Part shown: positions 20,681 through 50,012 of the stretch, piece after piece | Numbering within the stretch: position 1 is the first letter of the stretch | How the letters are laid out: every line of letters begins with the position of its first letter | From: a virus | Direction: 5' to 3' (one strand) | Length of the DNA stretch: 64,000 nucleotides | IMG/VR virus record: IMGVR_UViG_3300014913_000011 | Coordinates: 1 to 64,000 of that record | Program-made: the position numbers and the translations under genes | The notes under the pieces: model-generated | The model's input: only the letters and a program-made list of their open reading frames with translations | What the model was told of the DNA's origin: nothing | Database searches by the model: none

Positions 20681-21379
20681 TTATTTTGAGTTTTTAAATG
20701 AAACTCTTTCTAGAGCTGCATCACGAGCGGGTAGTTGAATCAAACTATAAATGTCATCAGGATTTATTACATTGTATATTTCGAACCAATCTTTCGGTGG
20801 TTTTCCTGACTGTGGATGAATAACTGCATCTCCATACTTAGATACTAGAGCCTTACCATACTTAGAATCTGTACGAATAAGGTATCCAGCTCCAAATCTA
20901 CCAAGATTGGAAATACTTTCATTTTTAGACTTTTTAGCTAACTCTTTATTATACCAAATTAAATTTTTAGTATAAATTAAACTAGACTCTGGAGAGCCTT
21001 GAATAAAGTATGCTGCCCATTTAATAGGTGAACTATCACCTGGTCCTACATTTTCTCCTATACCTAAAAATTCATTAGATAATACTGTTATTGTAACCTC
21101 TCCACTATCTGTAACACTGCTAGCTGATTTGGTTAATTGAGATTTAACTTCCTCTTGGATAATTTCTGAAAAGTTTAAAAACCTAGTAGGGTCGTCTTCT
21201 GCCTCTCCCCCCCAATATTCCTCCTGCATTCCTTGAAACATTTGCATGACTTTTACAGTAAAAAACTGATGAACTTGATCTGATTTTAACCTCCTTCTAA
21301 CCTCTTGATAATAGGCCCTACTCAGATCTCTCTTTAAATCTCTTATCCCTTTTTTAGCTTTCTCTAAGTCCTTTACCAT
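20681..21379 (-). CDS. Putative neck/tail completion protein
   Basis: Position in the neck block; C-terminal IHP..G.PP motif. Confidence 0.45.
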   Translation of the reverse strand: MVKDLEKAKKGIRDLKRDLSRAYYQEVRRRLKSDQVHQFFTVKVMQMFQGMQEEYWGGEAEDDPTRFLNFSEIIQEEVKSQLTKSASSVTDSGEVTITVLSNEFLGIGENVGPGDSSPIKWAAYFIQGSPESSLIYTKNLIWYNKELAKKSKNESISNLGRFGAGYLIRTDSKYGKALVSKYGDAVIHPQSGKPPKDWFEIYNVINPDDIYSLIQLPARDAALERVSFKNSK

Positions 21380-23172
21380 GGCCCATCATCGCTAGGTATA
21401 GTGGGAGGATCATTTGGAGTTCCTGAATCTGCTTGATCCGAACTAGATCCATGTATATTCTTTATAATTCTCGGGTCTGTATCATAATGATCTGATACGC
21501 TCTTATCTGTTTTTACTGTAAGTGTATAAAATTCCACTATATGATCTGCTCCTAGTCCTTTAGTTCTTGGTGGAGATGTTAAAGCACATTCCACTCCATC
21601 TATTATAAACTTTTTTGCATCTCTACACAAGGCATAATTACATTTAAAAGTTTTTATTCTACAAACATTCTCACCATCCCAACCAGCGGATAAGTCTAAA
21701 AAGTCTCCTTTAGGGTTCCAAGTTACCAGACCTTTTATACATTCAAATCTTTTTTCAGTTAGTATACCCTGTCCTTTACATACTGGACATATTGAAGTTC
21801 TTAAGATTTTTGGATTATCTAATGAAGGGTCATACTGTATCCCTGCAGGTGCTGACTCAACATTGAAAGGCTGTGGGTAAACCTTCCGCTCGACTGAAGA
21901 TCCAACAAAGATATTAACAGGTCTGATAAATTCTGAATAATATATATTAGTTGATTTACCTCTAACAGTATCAAAGATGCAATTATTAACACTTATACCT
22001 TCAGCTATGTAGCTATGTTCATTAGTAACTTCAATATTATAAACAGTTGTTTCTTTTTTAAAGGAGTCTAAGGATTTTACCACCTGAAATAGTTTATTAC
22101 CATCCTGAAGAGATCCTCTCAAGTTATACTCCTTATCATTCCAGTATCTTATCTGGTAGCTATCTCTATGCTTTACTTTATTTTTATCAATAAATGCATT
22201 AGTTTTTCTTATACTAACTTTATATCCACAAGATAAAAGTAGATTATATACTTGATATGCTAATTTTTTAGAAATTGTAGTTAACACATTAGCATTAAGG
22301 TTCTTTTCAAAATGTCCATCTCCAGTATAAAGACCAGAAATTAAAGACATAGTTTGCTCCTCATTTAATGTGTAATATAGTTCTTCTGGGATCTTCTTAT
22401 TTCCTGCTAAGTGTCCGCACCACCTATCTAGTAAATCAGCTAGCTTAGAACTGTACATTTCAAAAACTAGATTCTTACTATTAGGTCTATCTTGTATTCC
22501 ATAGTTTAAATCGCAGACTTCTGACCATAAGTCACATACTTTAATACCTACATCTCTCTCTGAGTTATTTAAACAGTAAAGTATACTTCTACCTTTTGAC
22601 GTTACTCCTTCTGCTATGTATAATCCTATTGCAAATAGCAAATCATTAGATAATTGTAATTTTTCTGGTGAGGTTTTCTTTGGGCCTGTGAGATTCTCTT
22701 TCCACTTTATCTTCCTCTCAACTAATCTCTCCTTTGGTAACTCTCTTATACTTTTAAACACTAAGTCACCTTTTTGAATATCACTTATGGACTTTTCTAC
22801 CTGTTTTCCAATTATTGGTTTATAATTTGTACCTAAGTTAGAATATACCTTTAATTTATGATTGGAAGTAGCAGATATACCTACACTGTTTCCATACATA
22901 TGAATAGTATTAAAGTTAAACGTCCCTCCCTTGATAAAAGTTTTTGAAACCTGCTGAAGGTTACCTAACCCATCTATAACTTGATCACCTGGCACAAAAT
23001 CTTGAATTTCTTTCAATCCATTACCTGTCTCTATTAAAGTACCATATTCAAAACAATTGGGACAGTCTACTTCATATGGATCCATAATTACGGCTAAAGA
23101 TCTTCCCATCTCCTTAATGTAACTGTTCATACCTTTGTGAAACTGTTTCTTTAGATCTTTAGGTATTTTCAT
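21373..23172 (-). CDS. Putative head-closure/neck protein with zinc finger, interrupted by an intein
   Basis: Exteins total about 241 aa with CPN|C and CPVC; follows the head-tail adaptor. Confidence 0.65.
   Translation of the reverse strand: MKIPKDLKKQFHKGMNSYIKEMGRSLAVIMDPYEVDCPNCFEYGTLIETGNGLKEIQDFVPGDQVIDGLGNLQQVSKTFIKGGTFNFNTIHMYGNSVGISATSNHKLKVYSNLGTNYKPIIGKQVEKSISDIQKGDLVFKSIRELPKERLVERKIKWKENLTGPKKTSPEKLQLSNDLLFAIGLYIAEGVTSKGRSILYCLNNSERDVGIKVCDLWSEVCDLNYGIQDRPNSKNLVFEMYSSKLADLLDRWCGHLAGNKKIPEELYYTLNEEQTMSLISGLYTGDGHFEKNLNANVLTTISKKLAYQVYNLLLSCGYKVSIRKTNAFIDKNKVKHRDSYQIRYWNDKEYNLRGSLQDGNKLFQVVKSLDSFKKETTVYNIEVTNEHSYIAEGISVNNCIFDTVRGKSTNIYYSEFIRPVNIFVGSSVERKVYPQPFNVESAPAGIQYDPSLDNPKILRTSICPVCKGQGILTEKRFECIKGLVTWNPKGDFLDLSAGWDGENVCRIKTFKCNYALCRDAKKFIIDGVECALTSPPRTKGLGADHIVEFYTLTVKTDKSVSDHYDTDPRIIKNIHGSSSDQADSGTPNDPPTIPSDDGPW
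21982..23055 (-). mobile_element. Intein (358 aa, Cys1...Asn, +1 Cys) with LAGLIDADG endonuclease
   Basis: Block A CFEYGTLI, block B ATSNH, FAIGLYIAEG and LISGLYTGDG, block F/G VYNIEV...EGISVNN|C. Confidence 0.92.
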
Positions 23173-32958: not shown

Positions 32959-35103
32959 TTATTTCTTGGATTTTAGTAATGTGATTAACCTCTTTTTCTC
33001 ACCTTCTGGTAACTCTCTAATATTACTAATTAAACCTTCTACTTCTACATCTATATTAGTATTGTCCGAAGCTTTGGTTCTGGTTTGTTTTTGTTGAGTA
33101 GGACTATCTACCTTAGTTTTTTTTGTAACTGTTTTAGTATTATCTACTGGTTTCTTGTTTCCAGTTGGTTGTCCTTTTGGTCTACCCTGGTCTCCAGATG
33201 TTTGTTGAAAAGGACTCCCAGGTATTCCTATACCCTCTGCTTCCAACTTTAACTCTTCTCGCATCTTCTCTACTTCTGCTTCTGGATCAAATCCCAAGAC
33301 TTGCATAGTGGTATGTCTGGAAACTAGTTTTCTATCAATCATTTGCATCATGGAAGCTCTAGTAACTGCATCACTGTCTGTTGTAATAACTGATTGTTGC
33401 CATCTCACTACCGGATAAGAATTAAAGCCATTTTGTTCTGCTATTAGCTTATATTGCTTATAAATCCAGGCAGTTATTGCTCTTCTAACGACATCTATCT
33501 GACTTTGAGTTGACTTAGAAGATAGTACTGCTGCTGCATTTTGTATAGAGCTGCCGTCAATTATGGCTCTAGATATACCTAAACCTGCTTGAATGTCCAT
33601 CTCTACTTGCTCATACTTGGCCTTTCCAAGGATGGCACCTATATCGGGGGTAGTTATTTTCTCAATATCCAAAGTATGATTCCATACTACAGAGAATGCC
33701 TTTTGAGGGGTGTTAAAGGCTTCTGCTAGATCTTCTAGAACCTTTAGATCAGTAACTGGGTGGTCCTTATCCCCTACAGTTACCTTTAGAATATAGTTAA
33801 AAATTCCATCTAAGGTAGCAAAATCGGCTGCTACTAGTTCGTCCTTATAATCGATGGCATCAAAAATCCTGGATCCTCTAGGTTTCGCATAAGCTTCATG
33901 GTCATCCTTACGAAAAAATATGACATCTAATTCATCACCCGTGAATAGGTAGTCATCTCCCCCTATAGCGGAAGCTTTCATTTTGGTGGGGACCATTCCT
34001 ATTAACTGTTTCTCCTCTGGACTCATTTCTCTCTTCTTTTGTCTCTCTACTGATTCCTTCAAACCAGATAAACCTTTAGAGGTGTAAGTGTAAGTAGCCC
34101 CACCAAAAAACCCTGAACTCTCTACATTCATATGTTTAGGATTTAATAGAGTATAAGCTATTGGCATCTTCCCGGATGCTTTTTTAGCTGCCACCTCTAT
34201 TTCCCTCGCAATCGCTGCATCATACCTTTTCTTATCCTGTTTGGTCCATTTTTTTCCAGTTACTTTTTCATAAACATCTCTAGATAGTCGAAGAAGGGTT
34301 GCCTTCTCTTTTTGTTTTTTCTTAGTATTAGTGGGTATTTTCCCAGGCAATGATGAGATTCCACCTGTATTTGGCTCATAACTACCTGTTCCTGGCATGA
34401 CATACGCTATACCATACTTGAATAGGTTATTAATTATCTTGTCTACTGTCTTCAAAAAGTTAGTATCTAAAATCCAAGAATCATAAAACTCCTTTATAGC
34501 CTCATCTGCTATTTCGTTTACGAACCCTGTTGATGTGAAGTCTGTGAGTGCGTCTATAGCTGATCCATATATTCCAGATCTGTAATATTCAACTTCAGAC
34601 CTTTCATATAGTTCAACTGCGTTCGCTTCGTCAGGTGTTTTCTCTCTGAGATCTAGTTCCTCATTGCTCAGAGGTGTACGGTATCTTTGATTCAGGGAGG
34701 CCATTTCTAGGGAAGCCATTTCTTTGTTGGTCTGTTTGACCTGCTTCACTACTTCTTCTATTCCTTTACCATTCTCTACTGCTTTAGCTATATCTCTTAA
34801 ACCTGCTATCTCTATCTGTCGAAGAAAGTTATCTCTTGTCTTGTTTAAATTTAATTTATGATATAGACTACCTCTATTAACCTGTCTCTCTGTAACTAGT
34901 TTATTTAATTGATCTTTATTTGCAAAAAAATTTCTATCAGCATCAAATTCTGAAATACTTAACTCTGCCGATAATTTTCCGTCCTTTATGTCACTAACCT
35001 TACTAATTTGGATACCTTTAGGTTTTAATGACTTATTAACTTTTGAAATTATGGCTGCTTTATCTATCTTTTTATTCTTATCGTCGTCTTTTTTTTCTAC
35101 CAC
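32959..35103 (-). CDS. Portal protein
   Basis: 714 aa directly downstream of TerL; portal-like C-terminus (PVVRW...LGFDPEAEVEKM). Confidence 0.75.
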   Translation of the reverse strand: MVEKKDDDKNKKIDKAAIISKVNKSLKPKGIQISKVSDIKDGKLSAELSISEFDADRNFFANKDQLNKLVTERQVNRGSLYHKLNLNKTRDNFLRQIEIAGLRDIAKAVENGKGIEEVVKQVKQTNKEMASLEMASLNQRYRTPLSNEELDLREKTPDEANAVELYERSEVEYYRSGIYGSAIDALTDFTSTGFVNEIADEAIKEFYDSWILDTNFLKTVDKIINNLFKYGIAYVMPGTGSYEPNTGGISSLPGKIPTNTKKKQKEKATLLRLSRDVYEKVTGKKWTKQDKKRYDAAIAREIEVAAKKASGKMPIAYTLLNPKHMNVESSGFFGGATYTYTSKGLSGLKESVERQKKREMSPEEKQLIGMVPTKMKASAIGGDDYLFTGDELDVIFFRKDDHEAYAKPRGSRIFDAIDYKDELVAADFATLDGIFNYILKVTVGDKDHPVTDLKVLEDLAEAFNTPQKAFSVVWNHTLDIEKITTPDIGAILGKAKYEQVEMDIQAGLGISRAIIDGSSIQNAAAVLSSKSTQSQIDVVRRAITAWIYKQYKLIAEQNGFNSYPVVRWQQSVITTDSDAVTRASMMQMIDRKLVSRHTTMQVLGFDPEAEVEKMREELKLEAEGIGIPGSPFQQTSGDQGRPKGQPTGNKKPVDNTKTVTKKTKVDSPTQQKQTRTKASDNTNIDVEVEGLISNIRELPEGEKKRLITLLKSKK

Positions 35104-38035
35104 TTTTCTGTGTTATAACTCCTCCGTTCCTTATTCTACGAATCCCGCTTGATCTTTGCTCTTGCATGAACTCCTGAGGTGTACAAACTAGTCTACCTTG
35201 TTGTATCATACCAACATCTGGGCCAGATGTCAAACTTTGTTCGTTTATTTCCCTTATTATACCTGTTGTAGGTACACTTAAATCTTCTCCGGGCTTAAAC
35301 CCCCGATCATACGCACATTTACCTGCTAATATGAAGGCTGTATATAAATCCTTTGTGTTCTTGTCCAGATTTGATTTTCGCGCTGCATTACTGCTGTTTG
35401 CATTTTTAGGTAAATCATACCTTGGAAGTTCTTTAACACCTGAACTAGTTATGATGATTGAAGCTATTTGATCTATCATCTTCTGAACTAAATCTATTGT
35501 TTTTATCCTTCCTTTTGCGTCTGGTGAGCTTTGTACTTCTATTGGATTATTAGATTGAGGTAATTTTAATAAACCTTGCTCTAATAATGCCTTAGTATTA
35601 TTATTAGCATCACCTATAAATTCACTTACAAAATTACACATAGTAAGAATTCTCTTTCCTGTCATAAAAGGGCTTGACTCTTTCTCAATAATCTTTGTTT
35701 TTAGATGATCTCCCACGTCTAATTGACTTGGATCTGCTAGTAGATCCTGTAAAGTTCTACCTCCACCTCCAGAATCCATGTAAATTTCCTCAGGACTGAA
35801 TTTGAATATTAAATCAAGGATAGTTTTTGCCTGATCCTGGAAAGAGGCAGTGCCCCCTGGAATTTCTACTATATGAACTACCTTACATACGAACCCTAGC
35901 TCCATAATTACTATTGCTGTAGAATCTCTATCCCTAGCCACGTCAATTCCGAATACGTATTTGGTGTTTTTATGTTTATTTAAATCTCTCTCTGAATATG
36001 GAACTAGATCCACTTCCCTACATGCAGAAAGTAAAGCCATCGGAAATGCACCTGCTGAGTCTGCAATCCACTCAGCACACCACTCTGTAAGGAACATATG
36101 CGAAGGATCGTTATTCATTGCATTATCAATTAGGTCTTGCTCTAAAAAACCTTCAGGTATATCATTCCAAGGAACAAAATTTAAGGAGTGCTTATTACTT
36201 CCTGCTTTCATCTGTTGCCAAAATTTTTGAATAGTAGCCCACCAGTAATTAAATTGGTAATATCCAGAAGTAATCGCGATATATCCATTATCAGTGGAGA
36301 GTAAGTTTTCTATTAACTGTATATTATTTTTTCCTGACTCCTTATACTCGTTCTTAAGTTTTTCTAATTCTATTACCCTACCCATAGGATCAACTGATGT
36401 GGCAAGCATAGGTAGAATTACACTACTTAGAATTACCTCAGGGAGCTGAACACACTCATCAATTAATATCTCACTAAAACGTAGCCCTCTAATTTTTGCT
36501 CCATCTGTTCCTACTGGCAAAGCATTTAAGTAACTAGACTGATAACCCGTTGCAGGTGGTTTGAGTATACACTTACAAGCATCATTACCTTCAGTTGGCT
36601 CTTTAAGAATGCATTCTGCTAATAAAGGACTATCATCTACAAACTTTGTAAACTCTTTAAAAATAAGTTTTGACTGCCTGTAGGAAGGACCGAATACTCC
36701 CATTCTTGAGTTTGGATATAATAACATTTTAAGTGCTAAGTATACAGCACATAGGAACGTATTATGAGTAACGATATAATCATCGGTTACATATAGTTCT
36801 TCAGGATCATCTATCTTTATGCAGGTTGCATAATCTTTCTTTCCCGTAAACTCTATTGATTCTATCCTAAGACCAAAATTTTTTTCTGAATATTGATCTG
36901 TTTCTTTAAATCTCTCTAATTTTCTAGGTGATGAAACCAGTTCTCTTTTATCTTTATACCTAATACCTAATCTATAAGACTTTCTTCCTTTAACCTTGTC
37001 TCCATACTTATCCGTATACTTAGTTACTCTCGCCTGTATTGTACATATTCCACCCAATTTCCAAATTAAGGTTTGCACTTGTGTAGCCAACTCTTTACTT
37101 GTCGTTGTGTAGGTTATACTTCCACCTTTCACAGTTGTTCTATCTGTATCTATTAAACCCTGGATTAATTCGATGGTTTGTTTTCTTGATAGATTCATGT
37201 AGGCTTCAGGTATACTTTTGTCTTGGGACTTTTTACCAAAAATATTTAACCTTTTTAGTTCTTCTTTTAGAGTGTTTATATGAACTCTGCCTAAATTTCT
37301 TAGTTTTTTATGAACTATTACATAGTCATACTTACCTCTCTTGGAAAGTTCTAAATCTTCAGGTAGTGCCTTTGATACTTTCTCTAGTATAAAACCATCA
37401 GCTGAAGTAAATCCTACGTGATGTGTCATACATCCATCTCCAACTAAAGCCCCCAATAGGTACGGATGTATGTATAATTCTTTATCCACTTCTAATACTA
37501 CATTCTCTGCGACAGGTATTCTAGGATACCTATGATTTCTCTTAGCTTTACCACTACCAATATACTCTTTAATATCCTCTGTTTCTAATACTTCATACTG
37601 CCCAGATCCATTTACCCCTCGGACTGTCCATAAGTGTTCTTTAGTACACTCACAGGTTCTTCCATCATAGAAGTTTACTTTATAGATGTCTTGCTTACCC
37701 TGTGGAAATATACCTATGACATTACTTAAGCTGCCTTTAGGAGTAATAACTTGGTCACCGATTTTAATATCTTCAATTTTTACCCAACCATTAACTGTTA
37801 ATACTTTAGATCCATTAACAGTCGCTTTACCAAATCCTCTAGAAGCAGTAAGTTGGTTGAACTTGCTCTGCCACCAATCCATTAAAATCTTCCCCTGCAC
37901 TGGTAATAATGTCACAGGTCTACCATCTCTTACTAATAAATGATTAGCAGCTATTATAGGATTCTGCCTATAAAAATGAATTAATCTTGTTATATCGTCT
38001 GGTAAAGTATTACTTCTAGATTGAATTAAAACCAT
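35078..38035 (-). CDS. terL: Terminase large subunit (intein-containing)
   Basis: Walker A SRGFGK|T, Walker B ILIDE, KIRGLR, nuclease FGIDVAR...DSTA, YMDSGGGG. Confidence 0.95.
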   Translation of the reverse strand: MVLIQSRSNTLPDDITRLIHFYRQNPIIAANHLLVRDGRPVTLLPVQGKILMDWWQSKFNQLTASRGFGKATVNGSKVLTVNGWVKIEDIKIGDQVITPKGSLSNVIGIFPQGKQDIYKVNFYDGRTCECTKEHLWTVRGVNGSGQYEVLETEDIKEYIGSGKAKRNHRYPRIPVAENVVLEVDKELYIHPYLLGALVGDGCMTHHVGFTSADGFILEKVSKALPEDLELSKRGKYDYVIVHKKLRNLGRVHINTLKEELKRLNIFGKKSQDKSIPEAYMNLSRKQTIELIQGLIDTDRTTVKGGSITYTTTSKELATQVQTLIWKLGGICTIQARVTKYTDKYGDKVKGRKSYRLGIRYKDKRELVSSPRKLERFKETDQYSEKNFGLRIESIEFTGKKDYATCIKIDDPEELYVTDDYIVTHNTFLCAVYLALKMLLYPNSRMGVFGPSYRQSKLIFKEFTKFVDDSPLLAECILKEPTEGNDACKCILKPPATGYQSSYLNALPVGTDGAKIRGLRFSEILIDECVQLPEVILSSVILPMLATSVDPMGRVIELEKLKNEYKESGKNNIQLIENLLSTDNGYIAITSGYYQFNYWWATIQKFWQQMKAGSNKHSLNFVPWNDIPEGFLEQDLIDNAMNNDPSHMFLTEWCAEWIADSAGAFPMALLSACREVDLVPYSERDLNKHKNTKYVFGIDVARDRDSTAIVIMELGFVCKVVHIVEIPGGTASFQDQAKTILDLIFKFSPEEIYMDSGGGGRTLQDLLADPSQLDVGDHLKTKIIEKESSPFMTGKRILTMCNFVSEFIGDANNNTKALLEQGLLKLPQSNNPIEVQSSPDAKGRIKTIDLVQKMIDQIASIIITSSGVKELPRYDLPKNANSSNAARKSNLDKNTKDLYTAFILAGKCAYDRGFKPGEDLSVPTTGIIREINEQSLTSGPDVGMIQQGRLVCTPQEFMQEQRSSGIRRIRNGGVITQKSGRKKRRR
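36761..37825 (-). mobile_element. Class-3-type intein (355 aa, Ala1, WCT triad, +1 Thr) in the TerL P-loop, with LAGLIDADG domain
   Basis: A1 TVNGSKVLT; CTKEHLW; ATCIKID; IVTHN|T; YLLGALVGDG and LIQGLIDTDR. Confidence 0.92.
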
Positions 38036-42542: not shown

Positions 42543-43355
42543 TTAAGTTAAAATTACTGGGCCAGTATTAAGTATAAATACTTGATTTTCATAGTGGGAG
42601 GAAGGCTTCCTATCAGAAGTATAGAACTGACTCACGCCTTTTACTGAAATATTCAATACTTTTGATGACTTATATATGATTACTGGTTCAATACAGATGC
42701 ACATACCGGGTATTAGTGGGTGTCCAGAGCCGGGTTTCCCTTTGTTAGGTACGTTAGGTGCTTCGTGTAGGTCTAACCCAATACCATGTCCCTGAAAAGA
42801 CTCAAATATTTTAAACGAAGATCCTGAGTCCCAATCTTCATCCTTTCTAAGCTTTATTACTTCTTTATTTACAGCATGTCCTATATCAGATGTTGTATTT
42901 CCAGGTATGGACTTCTCAAATCCCTGGTAGAAAGCCTCTTTAGCTAATTTAACTAGTTCTTTGTGTTTGGATCTTCCGTCTTCTCCTATAATAACAGTCC
43001 TTGCTGAGTCAGTGCAATAACCATTTTTATGTCTAAGGCCAAAATCTATGGATAAGACATCTCCTTTTTTAAGTTTCTTATTATTTGGAAATCCATGTAC
43101 TATCTGTTCTCGATTTGATACACACGTACAATATGGGTATCCATACATTCCTTTGAAAAGCGGTGTTCCACCCGACTTTTCAATAAGATCTTCGGCTAAA
43201 TTCTCTATATCTTCAGTGGTGTTGCCTTCAACAGCTTGAGTAATTAGTTTATTTCTTATATCTTTACCTAGAATTCCAGCTTCTTTCAGTTTTTCGAGTG
43301 CGTCCTTACTGTAGATATTTACTCCGGTTTTTAAAGTGATTACCTCTTGTCCCAT
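42543..43355 (-). CDS. map: Methionine aminopeptidase type I
   Basis: IVHGFP, GDVLSIDFG, TDSART, GHGIG.DLHEAP, CIEP, SHYEN; all five metal ligands present. Confidence 0.92.
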   Translation of the reverse strand: MGQEVITLKTGVNIYSKDALEKLKEAGILGKDIRNKLITQAVEGNTTEDIENLAEDLIEKSGGTPLFKGMYGYPYCTCVSNREQIVHGFPNNKKLKKGDVLSIDFGLRHKNGYCTDSARTVIIGEDGRSKHKELVKLAKEAFYQGFEKSIPGNTTSDIGHAVNKEVIKLRKDEDWDSGSSFKIFESFQGHGIGLDLHEAPNVPNKGKPGSGHPLIPGMCICIEPVIIYKSSKVLNISVKGVSQFYTSDRKPSSHYENQVFILNTGPVILT

Positions 43356-43361
43356 TATTAT

Positions 43362-43390
43362 ATACTATCAGTAATAAAAAAAGGAGTCAA
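43362..43390 (-). promoter_or_regulatory. sigma70-type promoter, leaderless, for map
   Basis: TTGACT-17 nt-TAGTAT-6 nt-ATG. Confidence 0.7.
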
Positions 43391-43405
43391 GTAATCTTGA
43401 CCCCT
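43376..43405 (-). terminator. Intrinsic terminator ending the actin/amidase operon
   Basis: AGGGGTCAAG-ATTA-CTTGACTCCT followed by a T run. Confidence 0.8.
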
Positions 43406-43438
43406 CAGAGCATAAATGACAATGTAAGCTTATTGTTA

Positions 43439-44308
43439 TTATCTACCTACTATATTCCAAGACTTTCCATTAAACACTAGTCTAACAAATCCGTAATTTT
43501 CCCTTATGAATATTTTAGACTGTCCATCTACTGTTTCCTGCTTACCTTCAGGTAATTTAAACCCTTCTATAACTATGGATGCAAAATAACTACTTCCACT
43601 TCCATCCTTAATTACTAACTCGTGTCCTTTCTCACCCTTTGGGAGCTTAACTCCAAATAGGGCACTAGAAGAGTTGTTTACTATTACATTTCTATCTGAT
43701 CTAACTACTACTGCAGGTGCAGAATTTATGACTCTAATTGATGGTCTCTCAATACAATCCTCTGTCTTTAGGGCCTTACCATTTACTGTTAAGGCTCCTT
43801 TTACCTCTAAGTGACCAATTATCTCTTGTTTCTCTTTTTTTCTAAGTACAGCAAGTTCAGTCTTTAGAAAGCTATCTAATTCTTCTCTGGCTACTCGACC
43901 TTCTAATCCCTTCTTAGTTGCGAATTCAGCTAACTTATTAGGATTAACTATCTTAGCCAATTGCTCTTCGGTAACTAGTTTTTCTAATTCCCGCCTACTT
44001 GCTAGATCTTTTAATTCACACTTTGTCGCTAACTGCCCTAAACCTAAACTATCTATTACTGCTCTTAGATACTCTTTAGATATTAAATCTGTCAAGTTTT
44101 TCTTTAAGGCGAAGCCATTTAGGTCTACAGTTAAATTTGCAGCGTTTAATTCTTCCTTAGTTGCATACTTAGCCAGTTCTTCTCTTTTAGCTAAAGGTGC
44201 TAAGTCTGCCTTTTTAGCAAATCCACCTAATTCCTTTCTAGTTACCGCATCAGGATCTGCCTGTGCTGCGGGCTGTGAAGGTATTGTTTTCTTCTTATAG
44301 TCTATCAT
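43439..44308 (-). CDS. Fibre-like protein with (A/V)(T/K)(K/R)xEL repeats and C-terminal beta domain
   Basis: About eight ATKEEL-type repeats; LP...G.ELVIKD.SG...TVDG...NYG..RLVFNG.SW motif seen in fibre/baseplate proteins. Confidence 0.6.
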   Translation of the reverse strand: MIDYKKKTIPSQPAAQADPDAVTRKELGGFAKKADLAPLAKREELAKYATKEELNAANLTVDLNGFALKKNLTDLISKEYLRAVIDSLGLGQLATKCELKDLASRRELEKLVTEEQLAKIVNPNKLAEFATKKGLEGRVAREELDSFLKTELAVLRKKEKQEIIGHLEVKGALTVNGKALKTEDCIERPSIRVINSAPAVVVRSDRNVIVNNSSSALFGVKLPKGEKGHELVIKDGSGSSYFASIVIEGFKLPEGKQETVDGQSKIFIRENYGFVRLVFNGKSWNIVGR

Positions 44309-44321
44309 TGTTTTATACTCC

Positions 44322-44978
44322 CTACTTATTTAAATACTCTTTTATACCAAAGAAGATTGCATCTGCTATCTCCTCATGCTTATCTGTCAGGAACTTTACC
44401 TGATCAGGGTGATTAATAAACTCACACTCTACTAAACAACATGCCTGTACTAAGTGTTTTCTTAGCACATAAAACTTACTACCATTCTTTATTCCACGAT
44501 CTTTATGCTTAGGAAAATCAAGTATTAAGTTATTTTGTATACATGCAGCTAACTTTTTTGATTCAGGTCTGGATTTATTGAAGAAAGTTTCTATACCTTG
44601 GGCTGGTGTTCCATCATTTGAATTTGCATGAATAGAAATGAAGATATTAGGATTTTCTTTTTTAATAATTGCTACCTTGTCTCTTAAATGTGATAAAGTA
44701 TTATTATCAATCCTAGTCATAACTACCTTATAACCAGCCTCATCTAATTTATATGCTAGTTGTTCTGAAATATCAAGTACGGTATCTCTTTCGTACACCA
44801 GCTCACCTTCTAGCTTTCCTACTGCTCCTGGATCCCTTTTTCCGTTCCTACCCCCGTGTCCAGGATCAATCACTATCTTTATATTTGAATGACTTTTAGT
44901 ATTCTTGGATACTTCAGTAACTGACTGCCTTTTAAAGATCAAAAATATATTCTTTATTAAGTCTAGAAAAGTGTTCAT
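44322..44978 (-). CDS. N-acetylmuramoyl-L-alanine amidase (Amidase_3), endolysin candidate
   Basis: IVIDPGHGG..DPGA...E, FISIHANS, CLVECEFI zinc and catalytic motifs. Confidence 0.92.
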   Translation of the reverse strand: MNTFLDLIKNIFLIFKRQSVTEVSKNTKSHSNIKIVIDPGHGGRNGKRDPGAVGKLEGELVYERDTVLDISEQLAYKLDEAGYKVVMTRIDNNTLSHLRDKVAIIKKENPNIFISIHANSNDGTPAQGIETFFNKSRPESKKLAACIQNNLILDFPKHKDRGIKNGSKFYVLRKHLVQACCLVECEFINHPDQVKFLTDKHEEIADAIFFGIKEYLNK

Positions 44979-44980
44979 AG

Positions 44981-46066
44981 TTATTCATCCTCTGCAGCTA
45001 AGGCTATAAATGCTCCCTCAGCAACTGCCTCCAATGGCCTTCTCGCATGACAAACTTCTTTAACTTTAAAAGGTAATTTACTTTCTATTTTTTCAAACTC
45101 TTCCTTAAAAACCTCTAGAAAGTCTCCAGCTAAGGAGGTACCTCCAGATACTACAATTTTAACTGGCTCTAAAAACCTAGGCTTAGATTCTAACGAATCA
45201 ATTTTATTAACTATACTTTCTACCATATACTTAATTAAAGCTTTGTAATAGGAAGAGATAGCTATTTCAGCCATTTCATTTCCTGGATTCTTAATACTAA
45301 TTCCACTCTCTTTAGTGTAAGTCATTAAACTGGGAGTAATATCACTTGCTTTTGGGTCCTTAGGATCATATCCTAAACTTGTCGCAGCGGAGTAATCTAC
45401 ATAGTCGCCTCCTTTACTTACTGAGAAGGTGGTAATAACTTCAGCCATGTTAGTTATACATACGTTTGTCATGCCTGACCCACAACTTATTGCTATTCCA
45501 GTGTAGTCCTCTTCTTCTAATTCACAGAATACAATTGCTTGAGCTTCATTTATAGCCTTTCCTATAAAACCTAAATCTGCTAGTACTCTTTCGATTACAT
45601 TCTTATGATACTCAATATCAAATGGAGCGTCCTCAGGTGAAGCTGGTACACTATATACTACTAACTCGTTTGGTACAACAGGTTCTCCTAGTAACTCTTT
45701 TAATAATATTTTGAAGAGTGGAAGTGCCTGAGCCTCTCTCGGAGAAATTACACCTTTATGCATTGGCCTTCTTACAGTCATTTGTTTCTCTATAGCTACA
45801 TTTAAAGAATCATTTCCTAAGATATGGAGTTTCTTATCTTCTTGGATATAACTTACACCTGATTTATCTAAACCTTTTTTCATCATTTTAAAAACTAAGT
45901 CACCTCTAGGTTGAAGTTCTAGAAAGGAATCCCTTACTGATTTTGTCTCTACATCCCCAGATTCTAACATTCTACTCTCCACTAGGAAACCTGTCCCAAC
46001 GTCTAGCCCTCTCCCTGGTAAATACTTTTTAGCTTCCATAGGTTTATTTTCCTTTTCCATCTTCAA
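44981..46066 (-). CDS. Actin-fold ATPase, volactin-like
   Basis: Phosphate-1 GLDVGT, connect-1 INEAQA, phosphate-2 ISCGSGMTN, GGDYVD, adenosine VVSGGTS, connect-2 AVAEGA. Start may be 46060 or 46039. Confidence 0.88.
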   Translation of the reverse strand: MKMEKENKPMEAKKYLPGRGLDVGTGFLVESRMLESGDVETKSVRDSFLELQPRGDLVFKMMKKGLDKSGVSYIQEDKKLHILGNDSLNVAIEKQMTVRRPMHKGVISPREAQALPLFKILLKELLGEPVVPNELVVYSVPASPEDAPFDIEYHKNVIERVLADLGFIGKAINEAQAIVFCELEEEDYTGIAISCGSGMTNVCITNMAEVITTFSVSKGGDYVDYSAATSLGYDPKDPKASDITPSLMTYTKESGISIKNPGNEMAEIAISSYYKALIKYMVESIVNKIDSLESKPRFLEPVKIVVSGGTSLAGDFLEVFKEEFEKIESKLPFKVKEVCHARRPLEAVAEGAFIALAAEDE

Positions 46067-46454
46067 TAAGTCTCCTTTTCCTGTAAACTAAGTTACCCTT
46101 GTTTATTTCTGATATCGCCTTTAATATAGTATTTTTTACACTTTTGGCATTGTCTTTTAACTCACAGCTACAAAATCTAAGTATACTTAAGTTATATCTT
46201 TTATGGTATGCAATACAAGCTATGTCTTTCTTTATCCTAAGTAGCTGTCTATCTGTAGGTTTTTTTTGAATCTTACATTTAAAACAGTATGAATGAAAGT
46301 AATTTCCATCTGCTTGAATACTTAATTTATAACTTGGAAGGTAAGCATCAACATTATAAGTTCCAAGTCTATATTCCCTAACATAAGGTATACCCTCATC
46401 AGCTAAGATGTCTAACAGAATTTTCTCTATATCAGTAAGTTTTCTATTGGTCAT
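46044..46454 (-). CDS. DUF559/Vsr-like endonuclease-fold protein
   Basis: TDIEK...YNVDAY...LSIQADGNYFH...KD...ILRF. Confidence 0.75.
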   Translation of the reverse strand: MTNRKLTDIEKILLDILADEGIPYVREYRLGTYNVDAYLPSYKLSIQADGNYFHSYCFKCKIQKKPTDRQLLRIKKDIACIAYHKRYNLSILRFCSCELKDNAKSVKNTILKAISEINKGNLVYRKRRLIEDGKGK

Positions 46455-47049
46455 TTTTTAATGCCTTCAGCCTTTTAATCCTATCCTTAATATCTGAAGA
46501 TCCTTTCTTAGACTCAATCTTAATCTTAGGCTTCAGATTACTCACCCTAGTTTCGTCTATTGGATTGACAAACACTCCATCAGACTTATTATTAATATTA
46601 TCAATTGGATATGACTCTTGTGTGTCCTTATTTATTACTACAGTGGTATTCTTAGATTTTAACTCTTTAACCTCTTCTTTCATACTCCTTAATTCATTCA
46701 GAATTTCTAGATTTAAATCCTGAGATTGTTTTGACTGTTCAGATACTATATCTTTGATGCCTCTTAAATCTGAGTTACTTCTATGTATATTAATCTCCTG
46801 AATCTGGACATTTTTTAAATCTATATCCAACTTATTCTTAACCCTATCTAATAGTAATTGAACTGACATGGGTTTCTGTCTTACTGAATATGTTTTAAGT
46901 AATTGATTTTTCAGTGTATTTAATATTTGTATGTAGTCAGCTTCTAATACATATCCACCTAAAACAGCACTCTGAAACTCTGTAAGTGGGCCTGAATCGA
47001 TTCCTAATTGTTGAATTTGTTGAACTAACTTATTTAAGTCTATACGCAT
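46444..47049 (-). CDS. Coiled-coil protein, first gene of the actin operon
   Basis: Central coiled coil, linker, C-terminal DIKDRIKRLKALK helix. Confidence 0.7.
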   Translation of the reverse strand: MRIDLNKLVQQIQQLGIDSGPLTEFQSAVLGGYVLEADYIQILNTLKNQLLKTYSVRQKPMSVQLLLDRVKNKLDIDLKNVQIQEINIHRSNSDLRGIKDIVSEQSKQSQDLNLEILNELRSMKEEVKELKSKNTTVVINKDTQESYPIDNINNKSDGVFVNPIDETRVSNLKPKIKIESKKGSSDIKDRIKRLKALKNDQ

Positions 47050-47120
47050 ATACAGTATATAGTATACTAAGAAAAAAATACTTATATGTTAGGTAGTTAA
47101 CAAATAGATTATAGTGCTAC

Positions 47121-47342
47121 TTAATCTGGTGAGTCTAATAGTTCTTCAGGGTCTTCTAGCTCGTATATTAAATCACCAAAAAACACAATAGCTTCTTCTT
47201 TTGATGTAAAATAATACCAACCTTCTATCGGATAGGTATAGGAGCTGTGGTCAGCTATTGCTAAAGTATATGAACTACTTTTTACCTCATTTGGAGCAAT
47301 ATACAACTGCCCTTCTATTACTTTAAAGAATGCCTGTATCAT
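47121..47342 (-). CDS. Small hypothetical protein (fibre-associated type)
   Basis: YTYPIEGWYYF motif; ATG 47342 with SD. Confidence 0.55.
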   Translation of the reverse strand: MIQAFFKVIEGQLYIAPNEVKSSSYTLAIADHSSYTYPIEGWYYFTSKEEAIVFFGDLIYELEDPEELLDSPD

Positions 47343-47540
47343 GAGATTTCCCTTTATAAAACTACAGTCCAAGTCTATTACAAATGTTATAACAGTTTCT
47401 ATAAGTATAACTACCTATAGGTAATGATGTACAATTAATTAGGCAACTATAGTAAATCACTTTAAATATAGTACAATTGTCTAATTTTCAATATAACTGA
47501 ATAATTAAACTAAAATCTCTATAGTTGCATTAAATATAAT

Positions 47541-47888
47541 TTAGTACCTAAACAACTTAACTGGCTTATCTAATTTTGTCATAGCACTTAGCATGGATCT
47601 ACTTCCAGGACTTTTTCCATCCCAAAACAATAGTAACATGTCTCCATAGTCTGCCATTGATTTATTTCTAATAGGTCCAGCTGACGTTCCGTATGTTTTC
47701 CAGTCCGGTTCAAAATTTGTTATCTGTATTTTACTTAAATTTGCCCAACATTCTCCTAAACTATCAGCTCCCTTAGCTGCTCCTGATACTATCTCTGATA
47801 TTTTGATCTCCTTTGATATGTCATTTAACGCTGCAAATAATAACCTAGCATCATCAAAATCTCGTCCACCTGCTACAATAACTTTCAT
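47541..47888 (-). CDS. SLOG/YspA-like (DUF2493) protein
   Basis: IVAGGRDF, IVSGAAKGAD, AGPIRN..M, FWDGKSPGS. Confidence 0.85.
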   Translation of the reverse strand: MKVIVAGGRDFDDARLLFAALNDISKEIKISEIVSGAAKGADSLGECWANLSKIQITNFEPDWKTYGTSAGPIRNKSMADYGDMLLLFWDGKSPGSRSMLSAMTKLDKPVKLFRY

Positions 47889-47891
47889 ATA

Positions 47892-48077
47892 CTAACACCT
47901 GTATTCTATAAAATACCCGCACTTATTACATGTACACCTATAGTATTTAAGATTTGGGAATTTGATTTTGTTTTCTTCACCTAGTAATCTGGGCCTGTAT
48001 GGTTCTTCTATCTCTTCCGAATATAGGTCTTTGCTTTTACATTTATCGCAATAATAATTTTTCAGGTCTATACTCAT
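47892..48077 (-). CDS. Zinc-ribbon protein
   Basis: CDKC...CNKCG. Confidence 0.6.
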   Translation of the reverse strand: MSIDLKNYYCDKCKSKDLYSEEIEEPYRPRLLGEENKIKFPNLKYYRCTCNKCGYFIEYRC

Positions 48078-48946
48078 AGTCTTCTCTCTTGTATAAAGTA
48101 TATTAATTTAGTTAAACGCAGAAAAGAATTATCGGAATCTAAAAAATTAGAAAAAACTTTGTCGATGTAGTCAGTTATATCTAATAAATTTTGGAAACCA
48201 TATCTATTAGCTACAGCTCTATCTTGAGATATGAAATACCCATTCCTGTCCCAGTGTATTTTTGCCTGGTCTAAGCTACCTAATGATAGGGCTATGTAAG
48301 AGTTTAATCGCTTTATTAGTGTAGCCCTTAGTACTTGTATCGGTACAGTCTCTATTTTCTTTGCAAATAAATAACAATCTTCTCTGCCTTCAAATAGGGA
48401 TGTTATGAAATCCAATACATCAAAATTTGCTTTATAAATAGATACAGATCCCAAAGCCTCTTCTTCGGACATTACTTCTAAAGCTGTACTGAATCTTCTC
48501 AGTTCATTATGTACACTCTGTTTATTATCGGATGAAACCATTGTAAAAAAATCTAGGTGTTTAACCGATATATTAAATTCCTTAAATAATTTCTTTAAGA
48601 ACGCCTTTTTAGACTTCTTTACAGATAAATCTACACATTCCTCAAGATTTGATAACCTTTTTAATCTTTTATAGAGCTTCTTTCGTTTATCTAATTTCCC
48701 TACTACCCAAATAACTTCAGTCTGAAAAGGTGCTTCTAGTATTGATAATAATTTAACTGCATCAAACTTATCTACCCCAACAAAACCTGTAACTCCTGAG
48801 GTGTTAAGTAAGTTAGGCTGATGCATTAAGACAAATTGCTCAAAAGACAAATCTGAGCAGTACTGTAATTTAATATTTTCAAAGTCATTCCTTACTTCAA
48901 ACAATGAACTATCCAATGACTCAGATATAAAAACTTTTTTAAGCAT
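48074..48946 (-). CDS. DNA polymerase III delta (HolA)-like clamp-loader subunit
   Basis: KLDKRKKLYKRL and VHNELRRF patterns; coupled to the dnaX-like gene. Confidence 0.55.
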   Translation of the reverse strand: MLKKVFISESLDSSLFEVRNDFENIKLQYCSDLSFEQFVLMHQPNLLNTSGVTGFVGVDKFDAVKLLSILEAPFQTEVIWVVGKLDKRKKLYKRLKRLSNLEECVDLSVKKSKKAFLKKLFKEFNISVKHLDFFTMVSSDNKQSVHNELRRFSTALEVMSEEEALGSVSIYKANFDVLDFITSLFEGREDCYLFAKKIETVPIQVLRATLIKRLNSYIALSLGSLDQAKIHWDRNGYFISQDRAVANRYGFQNLLDITDYIDKVFSNFLDSDNSFLRLTKLIYFIQERRL

Positions 48947-50012
48947 CCTTCCACAACCTAGCTAATTCCACTGGTATCATGTCCACTACTGCAGACTTGT
49001 TACTAGTTTTTTTAAGTTTAAGTTCTATATCTAAGGATTTTTCCCAAAGTTTGTGAACCCTGTTTCCTATGAAAGCTTGAAAGGCTTTATCACTCATATT
49101 ACATTCCGGGAACTTGGCCCATATTTTTCCGAGTAAATCGTCAATGTTACTCTTTAGTTCGGGAACTAAGTCTTTAGCTGCAAACCCAAGTCTTAAATCT
49201 GCAGTAAACTGTTGCAACCTATGAATACCTTGTACTGGATCTACAATTTCTGGACTAAATACCTTAGATTGTTTTCTCATTTCGAAAAAGTCTTGAAATA
49301 AATATGCGTACATGAGGCTTGATAAGTTCTTTGAACTTACTACTCCTAAAGTCTTTGTGATGTCTAATTCAGTTTCGTCATTTGCATGTAAGGTTAAAAT
49401 CTTCTGGAGAGCCACGATAGCCCCCCGCATAGATCCTTCTCCAGATTCTACAGCCAAATCAATTAAAGCTTGAGGTAGTTTCTTTTTCTCTAATTTTAGT
49501 ATCTCTTTTAACCTAATATCAATTATACTATTAGGTATTCGGTTAAATCTATGTAATTCACATCTTGACTGAACAGTGCTAGGTATCTTCTCTTTCTCAG
49601 TAGTAATGAAGATGAACCTAACTCCTGGTGGAGGTTCCTCTATGGTTTTTAAAAGTGAGTCAAATCCAGCTGCACTGATTCTATGGGCTTCATCAAAAAT
49701 GTAAGTTTTACAATCACCTTCTATCGGATGATGTACTATCTCCAGTTTTAATGCACGAATATTATCTATTTTACCGTCACTAGCAGAATCCTTCTCAATT
49801 GTTCCGCAGGGATGTTCATTTAACACTTTACCTATAATCCTACCTAAGGTCGTTTTCCCTGTTCCTGGAGGTCCATACAGTAAGATACTCTTAGGAAGTA
49901 CATTTTCCTTTAAATATTGCTTTATTACTTTAGTGACACTTTCTTGGCCTGAAATATCTCCTAAATTGTCTGGGCGATATTTAAGATCTAAATCCAACTC
50001 AAATTCTGACAT
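48939..50012 (-). CDS. dnaX: DNA polymerase III gamma/tau-like clamp-loader ATPase
   Basis: KYRP...GQ, GPPGTGKTT, IFDEAH, LLKTIEEPP, SRC, GSMR. Confidence 0.9.
   Translation of the reverse strand: MSEFELDLDLKYRPDNLGDISGQESVTKVIKQYLKENVLPKSILLYGPPGTGKTTLGRIIGKVLNEHPCGTIEKDSASDGKIDNIRALKLEIVHHPIEGDCKTYIFDEAHRISAAGFDSLLKTIEEPPPGVRFIFITTEKEKIPSTVQSRCELHRFNRIPNSIIDIRLKEILKLEKKKLPQALIDLAVESGEGSMRGAIVALQKILTLHANDETELDITKTLGVVSSKNLSSLMYAYLFQDFFEMRKQSKVFSPEIVDPVQGIHRLQQFTADLRLGFAAKDLVPELKSNIDDLLGKIWAKFPECNMSDKAFQAFIGNRVHKLWEKSLDIELKLKKTSNKSAVVDMIPVELARLWKDA

Follow-up and report, generated by a model that had tools for sequence, protein, structure and literature searches.

A volactin-family actin and a predicted docking partner form a candidate cytomotive module in a jumbo-type phage

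Five open reading frames (ORFs) form a single minus-strand unit in the window, the 64,000-nucleotide stretch of IMG/VR record IMGVR_UViG_3300014913_000011 analysed here, which covers ~30% of the phage genome. They encode a 201-residue protein (46444..47049), described here as the partner or putative adaptor; a 136-residue Vsr/DUF559-type endonuclease (46044..46454), whose ORF overlaps both its neighbors; a 361-residue actin-fold ATPase of the volactin family (44981..46066), with a TTG start and an ATG two codons in; a 218-residue Amidase_3 N-acetylmuramoyl-L-alanine amidase (44322..44978), recognized by both Pfam and PHROG; and a repeat-rich protein of 289 residues (43439..44308). The ORFs lie where the first-pass annotation had placed them; the packing is tight, two junctions overlapping by 11 and 23 nt and the other two being separated by 2 and 13 nt. 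The unit ends in an intrinsic-terminator-like hairpin and T run on the minus strand (43381..43406), comprising 11 pairs (5 G-C) and a loop of 4, followed by TTTTTATTAC, and the methionine aminopeptidase gene (42543-43355) lies beyond it. Terminator-like sites are found three times in the region against 3.2 expected, a count that alone proves nothing; the terminator reading, which had been made from the outset, fits because the hairpin follows the last ORF.

Upstream of the partner, the motif TATACTATA (47058..47066, minus strand) ends 8 nt before the partner ATG and differs by one mismatch from TGTACTATA. It had been read as a late-type motif, but TATACTATA by itself is not enriched, with 4 copies against 2.35 expected and 4 copies reached in 17/100 shuffles. 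TGTACTATA is enriched: where 1.34 +/- 1.17 exact copies are expected, there are 6, every one on the minus strand (0/100 shuffles reach 6). Nothing marks it as a late promoter. Its nearest exact copy (47467..47475, minus strand) is a candidate promoter of unassigned timing, ~95 nt upstream of an 83-residue ORF (47121-47372). Late expression of the unit finds no support: in relatives (loci L002-L005 and L087) the partner-actin pair lies directly 3' of clamp-loader genes.

The 361-residue protein matches the Pfam Volactin family (PF25216) at E 3.5e-57 and 194.7 bits (cut-off 35), with residues 19-355 covering profile positions 3-320 and thus 318 of the 321 positions, and a six-frame search of the whole record gave the same match. 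Besides MreB_Mbl (32 bits) and Actin (15.4 bits), no further Pfam family was listed for this protein at E<=0.1. These scores bear out the earlier view that it is volactin-like rather than a relative of MreB, ParM or FtsA. MreB/Mbl (PF06723) was considered as the best family and rejected, scoring 32 against 194.7 bits in a partial match (residues 71-225; 153 of 327 profile positions). The nucleotide-binding motifs of the actin fold, which we take to be those named phosphate 1, connect 1, phosphate 2, adenosine and connect 2, are all present, as had been claimed, and appear intact from the model topology and from residues D22, G24, T25, N173, E174, G196, G198, N201 and G308-S311, which are invariant in 27 related sequences. 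Volactin is matched by 815 cluster representatives at E<=1e-3, 261 of them at E<=1e-30, and the nearest ESM-Atlas clusters, named 'Volactin domain-containing protein', are 94% and 78% viral. Volactin of Haloferax volcanii (VolA, HVO_2015, encoded beside HVO_2016) belongs to the same Pfam family, but haloarchaeal homologs are 34-35% identical to the window actin (E 2e-50, tblastn), which falls in a separate clade of 39 rows (support 100) whose members are viral contigs from IMG/VR and metagenome proteins without a name; the long branch of E. coli MreB lies outside the whole set of 156 family rows. On these sequence comparisons, the 361-residue protein is a clear Volactin family member.

The AF2 model of the actin (pLDDT 89.4, pTM 0.86) has an actin-type topology, and its best Foldseek matches are MamK, MreB, BeeR, and ParM, the last at rank 21. 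MamK and MreB are the nearest solved structures (TM 0.61-0.70, E about 1e-14), yet share only 14-18% identity. The matches listed in the top 50 ranks all belong to the actin superfamily, save three rows named by a larger complex, and neither a sugar kinase nor an Hsp70 is listed among them; EutJ (rank 24) is the sole listed match not known to be a filament former or an actin-related protein. The model is thus nearest to polymerizing actins, and not grouped with sugar kinase- or Hsp70-like ATPases. A sequence profile search of the PDB reached MreB at no better than E 0.002-0.01, and the Volactin family therefore has no solved structure. Because of its family membership and predicted fold, we propose that the 361-residue actin most probably polymerizes.

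The AF2 model of the partner (mean pLDDT 67.3) comprises an N-terminal four-helix domain (residues 1-85; pLDDT 81-90 over most of residues 1-80), a long helix (residues 98-132) followed by a disordered linker, and a C-terminal basic amphipathic helix (residues 187-199, with L194 and L197 invariant; pLDDT ~80), which is the predicted actin-docking element; the protein also carries a conserved VFVNPID stretch. The coiled coil previously assigned to the partner corresponds to the moderate-confidence helix at residues 98-132, and we do not retain that label. A Pfam scan of the partner returned nothing above cut-off, PHROGs, Atlas features and a PDB fold search gave nothing usable, and no recognizable DNA-binding or membrane domain emerged from the Pfam, Atlas or PDB searches. 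A Kyte-Doolittle scan likewise found no transmembrane (TM) segment in the partner or across its sequence cluster (cluster 40), and the N-terminal four-TM DUF7139 domain is absent, with no Pfam match in either the window partner or its L087 ortholog. Cluster-40 orthologs lie upstream of the actin in 4/4 of the closest IMG/VR loci (L002-L005) and in L087/L088.

When the partner and actin were modeled together, ipSAE values of 0.64, 0.66 and 0.69 were obtained in three runs (median 0.66), against 0.00 as the best of 3 for the controls. In calibration, the mark applied here was reached by 58/80 solved complexes and 2/110 mismatched pairs, and passing it denotes likeness, not binding. At least 80% of contacts are common to the runs, although the partner alignment is shallow (6 rows) and partner pLDDT in the complex is 62-64. 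In these models the tail is docked in the actin subdomain IA/IIA cleft, with partner residues 171-201 contacting actin residues 37-44, 120-125, 180-188, 207-209 and 342-358. ParM with a ParR peptide is a solved actin-peptide complex, and the model may echo complexes of this kind. Taken with the conserved position of its gene, the predicted interface favors the earlier proposal that the upstream protein is an adaptor, which probably binds the actin via its C-terminal helix.

A similar tail recurs beside volactin genes far beyond the window clade. A relaxed motif ([KR]L..[LMIF][KR] in a basic tail of an upstream same-strand ORF) was found in 107/152 related loci against 7/1904 other ORFs (51/78 and 56/74 loci in the two locus sets; other ORFs 6/1187 and 1/717), counts that include many near-duplicate loci from sets overlapping in origin (L090 = L003 and L125 = L015, for example). 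A strict motif ([KR]L[KR].[LMIV][KR] within the last 15 residues) was found in 47/1476 ORFs, located at positions -1 (39), -2 (2), -3 (2), -5 (1) and -11 (3, all one repeated locus). A PSSM trained solely on 101-residue TM-type partners was tried on 40 loci without that partner type: the upstream ORF was the top-scoring ORF of the whole locus in 24/40, among them the window and 2/3 haloarchaeal loci, while the test failed in 16/40, Natrinema (L085) and L082 among these. With an HMM built from the TM-type tails, other partner types were matched at no better than E 0.24-7; a motif of this length cannot yield significant profile matches, and it is position, not alignment statistics, that carries the case.

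The N-terminal module preceding this tail varies. The largest phage clade has a single TM helix there, the model of the window partner a soluble helical domain, and haloarchaea a four-TM DUF7139 domain; in the haloarchaeal loci all three upstream genes (3/3; Haloarcula, Halogeometricum and Natrinema, a set that leaves out H. volcanii itself) encode CdpA-like membrane proteins bearing the motif. The haloarchaeal loci thus resemble the window in having an upstream same-strand partner with the same short basic motif, but the window partner is without the DUF7139/TM domain, and its motif lies at the very C-terminus, whereas the haloarchaeal motif is internal. Partners that already have TM helices retain the tail. 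A basic amphipathic C-terminal helix could alternatively serve membrane targeting.

The remaining ORFs of the unit appear to be less closely tied to the actin. The window copy of the ORF at 46044-46454 scores 17.8 bits against DUF559, under the 20.6 cut-off, but among its five orthologs four match DUF559 (best E 5e-7) and three match Vsr (best E 4.3e-10), so that the DUF559-like label given earlier, weak for the window copy, is borne out by the orthologs. The best PDB match is 3r3p, a 'Mobile intron protein' (1.7e-5), followed by Vsr endonucleases (1cw0 at 1e-4). Besides the window, L087/L088, L089, L002 and L003/L090 carry the ORF; L004/L005 lack it. From these matches it is a Vsr/DUF559-type endonuclease and probably a free-standing homing enzyme, its gene inserted between those of the partner and the actin, and its candidacy as a cytoskeletal component was rejected in favor of this reading. 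The Amidase_3 assignment is upheld (Pfam E 4.3e-40), and the protein is probably a phage endolysin, given its match to PHROG 435 endolysin (2e-38). Neither it nor the 289-residue protein has a homolog in any of 80 IMG/VR loci; among 80 metagenome loci, L087 has both (57% identity for the amidase, and 35% for the 289-residue protein, its only homolog found) and L123 the amidase alone (56%), in each case with the amidase adjoining the actin. In more distant clade members (L002-L005), the methionine aminopeptidase gene comes immediately after that of the actin. Because the two proteins trail the actin in no relatives but the closest ones found, they probably do not belong to the cytoskeletal system to which they had been assigned. 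The 289-residue protein, which had been called fibre-like, matches just two PHROGs (30808 and 19741), neither with a known function.

The wider context of the pair points toward DNA. The module sits within a clamp-loader-to-terminase gene run, which is typical of lytic jumbo phages, and no tubulin was found in 5/5 records of the window clade, one of them nearly complete (259,994 bp, 95%). Fusions of HTH_ParB with Volactin were detected in three proteins (P0132, P0142 and P0156), but P0156 alone, at 27.8 bits, scores above the 22.6-bit cut-off; an Atlas cluster of 69 members joins Bac_DNA_binding with Volactin, and viral actins of 391-399 residues have an N-terminus that, judged by eye, looks like an HTH. 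Because the phage encodes a peptidoglycan amidase, we infer that its host is a bacterium, unlike that of the haloarchaeal volactins.

Our literature search found no paper on a volactin-partner pair in phages, and related systems offer the closest comparisons. Volactin of H. volcanii acts in the rod-to-disk transition. Work on this protein describes dynamic filaments in vivo whose tips touch the membrane, and gives its binding factors as unknown (PMC10869688); a separate article notes that the CdpA-like HVO_2016 adjoins the volactin gene (PMC12126565). The C. glutamicum prophage CGP3 also pairs a virus-encoded actin with an adaptor gene upstream, a likeness of gene order alone: the AlpA/AlpC study places the AlpA gene upstream of AlpC in the same operon, finds that both are expressed early and that efficient replication of the viral DNA depends on them, and reports that AlpC filaments carry phage DNA (PMC4446434). 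Unlike AlpA/AlpC, the window has no alpS-like repeats upstream, and its partner has no recognizable DNA-binding domain. The predicted docking site is the same IA/IIA cleft as in ParM/ParR/parC, but the gene order is reversed, with the window adaptor upstream of the actin, and the locus shows no ParM-family match at E<=0.1 and neither a ribbon-helix-helix domain nor centromere repeats. In ParM/ParR of plasmid R1, the ParR C-terminal helix binds this cleft at the filament end. PhuZ/TubZ are likewise cytoskeletal polymers of large phages, presumed to help position replication or assembly, but they belong to a different superfamily, of which no member was found in the five window clade records, one of them nearly complete.

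We propose, with a probability of roughly 60%, that this tubulin-less jumbo phage carries the pair as a two-gene cytomotive module, in which a polymerizing volactin and a cleft-docking adaptor position the phage DNA, replication or packaging site. The 361-residue ATP-binding actin would form filaments, and the C-terminal basic amphipathic helix of the 201-residue adaptor would dock in the hydrophobic IA/IIA cleft. In actin-like filaments such as those of actin and ParM, a single end leaves this cleft exposed, and the adaptor would accordingly cap the tips of the filament or hold on to them. What the filament attaches to would be set by the N-terminal domain of the adaptor, linking filament ends to cargo, possibly phage DNA or the replisome, and the module would work inside the infected cell much as AlpA/AlpC or ParR/ParM do. 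Positioning of DNA or replication seems the most likely job because of the clamp-loader neighbors, and the ParB-type HTH and HU-type fusions in relatives. The Vsr-like endonuclease would be a selfish insert, and the amidase a lysin and mere neighbor.

Several of these features would also suit ParMRC-type segregation of a plasmid-like prophage or carrier-state genome, in place of an organizer of lytic replication: the layout of an adaptor with an actin, the ParB-HTH and HU fusions to volactin domains, the location of haloarchaeal copies on megaplasmids, and the ParM-like dynamics reported for volactin (PMC10869688). We consider such a role unlikely, as there are no centromere-like iterons upstream of the pair (46900-47700), no integrase, repressor or plasmid-replication genes among the scanned ORFs (~30% of the genome), and many phage clades have a membrane protein rather than a DNA binder as partner; moreover, the surrounding gene run is of the lytic jumbo type. 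A takeover of host wall or shape, in which the actin steers or localizes the amidase, or replaces host MreB and so reshapes the cell before lysis, was the idea of the first-pass annotation. That the amidase matches ordinary endolysin families, that homologs of it or the 289-residue protein occur in 0/80 IMG/VR loci and 2/80 metagenome loci, and that an aminopeptidase takes its place after the actin in L002-L005 makes this improbable, even though actin, amidase and 289-residue protein are contiguous before one terminator, their order is kept in L087 and the actin-amidase pair in L123, and volactin affects Haloferax cell shape (PMC10869688).

The actin might instead act alone, next to an unrelated small protein whose basic tail is a helix that binds membranes or nucleic acid. 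Helices of this amphipathic, basic kind at the C-terminus commonly target proteins to membranes, e.g. in MinD and FtsA, and so short a motif gives no significant alignment; however, the tail is kept while the remainder of the protein changes, always by a volactin gene and in phages and haloarchaea alike, it persists in TM-bearing partners, and the complex model passes where all controls give 0.00. We accordingly give little credence to a chance pairing. It seems very unlikely that the 361-residue protein is a non-polymerizing, chaperone- or kinase-like ATPase of the actin fold: its family includes a protein seen forming filaments in vivo and its top fold matches are filament formers, against which stands the appearance of EutJ among the fold matches.

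Beyond the favored reading of a positioning module, we raise the tentative possibility that tubulin-less jumbo phages build an actin cytoskeleton from volactin and a modular adaptor, and that the docking helix shared with the haloarchaeal CdpA-like anchor marks one ancient module of archaea and phages. In the window phage, the anchor would have been lost, and the filament ends would be tied to the replisome, the genome, procapsids or another soluble target. If true, such a system would be the actin-based counterpart of the PhuZ spindle in jumbo phages.

The 361-aa protein encoded on the minus strand at 44981-46066 was found to belong to the volactin family of actins. The Pfam Volactin profile matches it along the full protein (194.7 bits against a cut-off of 35, E 3.5e-57), MreB_Mbl scores 32 bits with half of the profile covered, Pfam Actin stays under its own cut-off at 15.4 bits, and a PHROG search with the protein gave no match. 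Its nucleotide-binding residues are invariant among 27 relatives, and an AlphaFold2 model built on the alignment of these relatives (pLDDT 89.4, pTM 0.86) is closest in the PDB to MamK (E 5.5e-15, TM 0.64/0.70), with MreB, BeeR, ParM, crenactin, Arp2/3 and actin as further best neighbors. The best 50 ranks of this structure search list neither a sugar kinase nor an Hsp70; the first-pass annotation had raised a grouping with such non-polymerizing ATPases as the outcome that would speak against a filament, and the protein falls with the polymerizing actins. A PDB sequence search with the actin returned MreB only (E 0.002-0.01), so the volactin family is without a solved structure.

Several homologs depart from this plain architecture. 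A 716-aa metagenome protein (P0121), 85% identical to the window actin, is interrupted by a LAGLIDADG intein of ~357 aa in the phosphate-2 loop, between the equivalents of S194 and C195; in this case the actin gene is also a target of selfish elements. P0123 (729 aa) contains two Volactin stretches, P0131 (750 aa) and P0134 (727 aa) each match the actin in two stretches, and each of these three is possibly a tandem of two volactins. In P0149 (1160 aa), volactin is fused to Wzz/GNVR and ParA/MinD-like ATPase domains, an arrangement resembling a polysaccharide co-polymerase tyrosine kinase.

To catalogue the family, 5963 candidates from a word-indexed search were scored, yielding 908 proteins at E<=1e-5; an exhaustive search recovered 815 cluster representatives at E<=1e-3, 261 of them still at E<=1e-30. 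A relative is encoded in 290 of 316 candidate IMG/VR stretches and in 481 of 582 candidate metagenome stretches, and many of these lie on contigs of 100-500 kb. The scan of viral contigs gave the IMG/VR relatives when an alignment was the query and none when a single protein was used. Deposited phage records with a relative number two out of 50,697, both uncultured huge phages (485 and 595 kb). The three ESM-Atlas clusters nearest by features are all named 'Volactin domain-containing protein'; of the members that have a record, 94% are viral in the first, 78% viral in the second and 59% bacterial in the third. When plasmids were searched by tblastn, five haloarchaeal megaplasmid records matched (34-35% identity, E ~1e-48 to 2e-50), and a scan of genome contigs found one locus (L082), on a 174,909-bp contig labeled as a Woesearchaeota MAG. 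The volactin homolog at this locus has a long N-terminal extension. By eye, the 839-aa ORF immediately upstream resembles the large subunit of a terminase, and close by is an HNH-like ORF; possibly the contig is viral and was binned with the MAG.

A FastTree phylogeny of 157 rows (218 initially, less 61 near-duplicates sharing at least 80% identity), with E. coli MreB as outgroup on a long branch, places the window actin within a 39-row clade (support 100), nested in a 62-row clade (support 96) that includes the largest group of IMG/VR contigs. The two rows from haloarchaea fall in a separate, weakly supported 37-row group (support 80). The deep branches of this tree lack resolution and give no basis for a direction of transfer.

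The window is contained in a 72,413-bp IMG/VR record with a CheckV completeness of 30%. Its source is most likely a jumbo phage, because a clade relative at 95% completeness measures 259,994 bp. No tRNA genes were found in the phage DNA examined, and tRNAs therefore give no clue to the host. From ~53.6 kb down to 1 kb of the window almost every gene lies on the minus strand, a run that includes a DnaX/clamp-loader-like AAA+ gene (48939-50012), the actin unit, a phage-encoded methionine aminopeptidase assigned by its Peptidase_M24 match (42543-43355), an intein-bearing large terminase (35078-38035) and the portal (32959-35103). The terminase intein has a LAGLIDADG homing endonuclease, with terminase PHROGs flanking the Hint/LAGLIDADG segment, and another intein-bearing protein is encoded on the same strand at 21373-23172 (Intein_splicing, LAGLIDADG_3 and Hom_end).

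Within the actin unit, ORF calls bore out the five closely packed genes first described, and a hairpin with a T run at 43406-43381 ends it, in agreement with the terminator originally proposed. The late-type motif placed at 47058-47066 fared less well. As an independent motif, TATACTATA was dropped, with 4 copies observed against 2.35 expected, and the 47058-47066 site is a one-mismatch variant of TGTACTATA. The latter occurs in six exact copies, on the minus strand only, against 1.34 expected, a number reached in 0 of 100 shuffles. An 83-aa ORF lies downstream of its closest exact copy (47467-47475), which is flanked by a perfect 10-nt inverted repeat (47443-47452 and 47519-47528, 66 nt between arms). 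The window analysis gave no indication of the timing of the TGTACTATA motif. The claim of a late operon is unsupported.

The 201-aa protein encoded upstream of the actin (46444-47049, minus strand) had been put forward as a possible adaptor, and gene order supports it as a conserved partner. Among IMG/VR loci, the four closest (L002-L005, of which L004 and L005 are near-identical) share one gene order: a clamp loader is followed by a cluster 51 gene, a partner ortholog of 181-198 aa, the actin and, immediately after it, an aminopeptidase; a Vsr-like ORF separates partner from actin in L002 and L003. The same order is kept in two metagenome loci, L087 and L088, whose actins are 61-62% identical to that of the window. 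Outside this closest clade the upstream proteins are unrelated by BLAST, yet they share a short basic C-terminal motif. In its strict form, [KR]L[KR].[LMIV][KR] within 15 residues of the C-terminus, the motif is present in 47 of 1476 ORFs: 39 at position -1 relative to the actin gene, two at -2, two at -3 and one at -5, all on the actin strand, the remaining three representing a single repeated unrelated locus. In a relaxed form it marks an ORF at -1 to -3 in 51 of 78 IMG/VR loci versus 6 of 1187 other ORFs, and in 56 of 74 metagenome loci versus 1 of 717 other ORFs, counts that contain near-duplicate loci and come from sets that in part share their origin. A position-specific scoring matrix (PSSM) trained solely on the 101-aa partner type ranked the upstream ORF first in its locus in 24 of 40 loci without that type (chance estimate ~6), or in ~18 of 32 distinct loci once duplicates were grouped. 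In the largest phage clade (L016, L020, L028 and similar IMG/VR loci), the conserved run comprises a RuvB-like AAA+ protein, a partner with a transmembrane (TM) segment, the actin, an HNH endonuclease, a trypsin-like protease and a subtilase.

The tail motif is too short for profile methods: cross-family matches of its HMM had E 0.24-7, none significant, and the HMM was dropped as a homology test in favor of the positional counts. A word-indexed search for homologs of the window partner found only two, and BLAST of long fused actin forms against the upstream-partner clusters revealed no adaptor-actin fusion. As judged from sequence, the partner is a constant, putative docking tail joined to a variable remainder. 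A hydropathy scan detected an N-terminal TM-like segment in 36 of 42 partners of the 101-aa type, the other six lying narrowly under threshold, and in two singleton partners; none was detected in the 190-240-aa types, including that of the window. In its model, the window partner has a four-helix N-domain predicted with confidence, followed by a long helix, a disordered linker and a terminal helix. It has no family match, no usable Atlas feature match (structure matches at TM<=0.33) and no PDB fold match at E<=0.001.

The modeling of the actin with the partner's C-terminal helix, proposed in the first-pass annotation, gave a positive result. With the actin (27-row alignment) and partner residues 150-201 (6-row alignment) as input, three runs scored ipSAE 0.64, 0.66 and 0.69, and the best of three controls scored 0.00; in calibration, 58 of 80 solved complexes reached the mark applied, as did 2 of 110 mismatched pairs. 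The runs have at least 80% of contacts in common, and partner pLDDT is 62-64. The last helix of the partner (~residues 187-198) packs in the model against actin residues 180-188, 207-209 and 342-358, and residues 171-185 lie alongside actin residues 37-44 and 120-125. From the secondary structure of the model and general actin anatomy, we take this site to be the hydrophobic cleft that separates subdomain IA from subdomain IIA. In ParM, the IA/IIA cleft is the binding site of ParR, and in filaments the next subunit fills it. Docking in a cleft that the next subunit fills would imply that the partner binds at filament ends. The model supports partner-actin binding, although its pass may owe something to solved complexes such as ParM-ParR.

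A similar arrangement accompanies volactin in haloarchaea. At all three haloarchaeal loci fetched, a gene for a ~300-aa protein lies directly upstream of volactin on the same strand, and all three proteins match DUF7139. Both of those scored by hydropathy scan (the two other than the Natrinema ORF) have four TM-like segments. These proteins also feature an acidic linker and the motif of the phage partners, positioned internally. In published work, HVO_2016, a CdpA-like four-TM protein, adjoins the volactin HVO_2015 and a common function is suggested (PMC12126565), filament tips of volactin contact the membrane, and its binding factors are called unknown (PMC10869688). A shared docking motif offers a testable explanation of why HVO_2015 and HVO_2016 are neighbors, as described in PMC12126565.

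The conservation of neighbors proposed at first thus holds for the partner and not for the rest of the unit. Outside the window, L087 is the only locus in which both the amidase (44322-44978, minus strand) and the 289-aa protein (43439-44308, minus strand) accompany the actin; L123, also a metagenome locus, has the amidase alone. How often the amidase follows the actin within the close clade is judged from few loci, to which the 47 proteins closest to the actin (P0002-P0047) contribute no contigs. The linkage of both to the actin is synteny local to one clade and does not characterize the family as a whole. Their occurrence in L087, and that of the amidase in L123, rules out insertion specific to the window. 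The amidase matches common endolysin families, and the suggestion that the actin localizes it is unsupported, given its presence beside the actin in L087 and L123 only. This amidase and its L087 ortholog have a hydrophobic stretch within the first ~20 residues, by eye, which could be a signal or signal-anchor sequence of the SAR-endolysin type. The 136-aa ORF (46044-46454, minus strand) is a Vsr/DUF559-type nuclease, closest among solved structures to a phage 'mobile intron protein'; L004 and L005 lack it, and it does not belong to the actin system.

Several observations hint at a role connected with DNA. A ParB-type HTH is fused to the actin in three relatives, one exceeding the Pfam cut-off, an HU-type domain is found on the actin in a 69-member Atlas cluster, and some viral-contig actins have by eye an HTH-looking N-terminus. 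The partner-actin module comes after replication genes, the partner of L087 starting 23 nt past the cluster 51 gene. In the window, the interval from the clamp-loader-associated gene to the partner contains three small minus-strand ORFs at 47121-48077 (the 83-aa ORF, a 115-aa YAcAr/SLOG-family protein and a 61-aa protein with CxxC pairs), none of which occurs at the equivalent place in L087 or L002-L005. The five clade records searched yielded no tubulin, and no iterons were found upstream of the window module. AlpA/AlpC of prophage CGP3 are expressed early and needed for replication, and the adaptor gene comes first, as in the phage pair (PMC4446434). Positioning of phage DNA, or of a replication or packaging site, is therefore the favored role of the module, on the basis of the DNA-binding fusions, the replication-gene context, the lack of tubulin and the likeness to AlpA/AlpC; the cargo here is putative.

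Overall, the initial observation was largely right, and the reading of an actin with its adaptor is supported by several independent lines, its function and polymerization being predicted. To our knowledge, the phage cytoskeletons studied so far are mainly tubulins (PhuZ, TubZ), plus a single prophage actin (AlpC). In contrast, the present data describe a widespread actin family with a recognizable partner, whose docking motif is also found beside haloarchaeal volactin. In the volactin and jumbo-phage actin-like literature searched, we found no paper on volactin-family actins or on such an actin-partner pair in phages. The pairing of a short peptide with an actin makes for a simple in vitro test, and could advance the study of actins in archaea as well as in phages.
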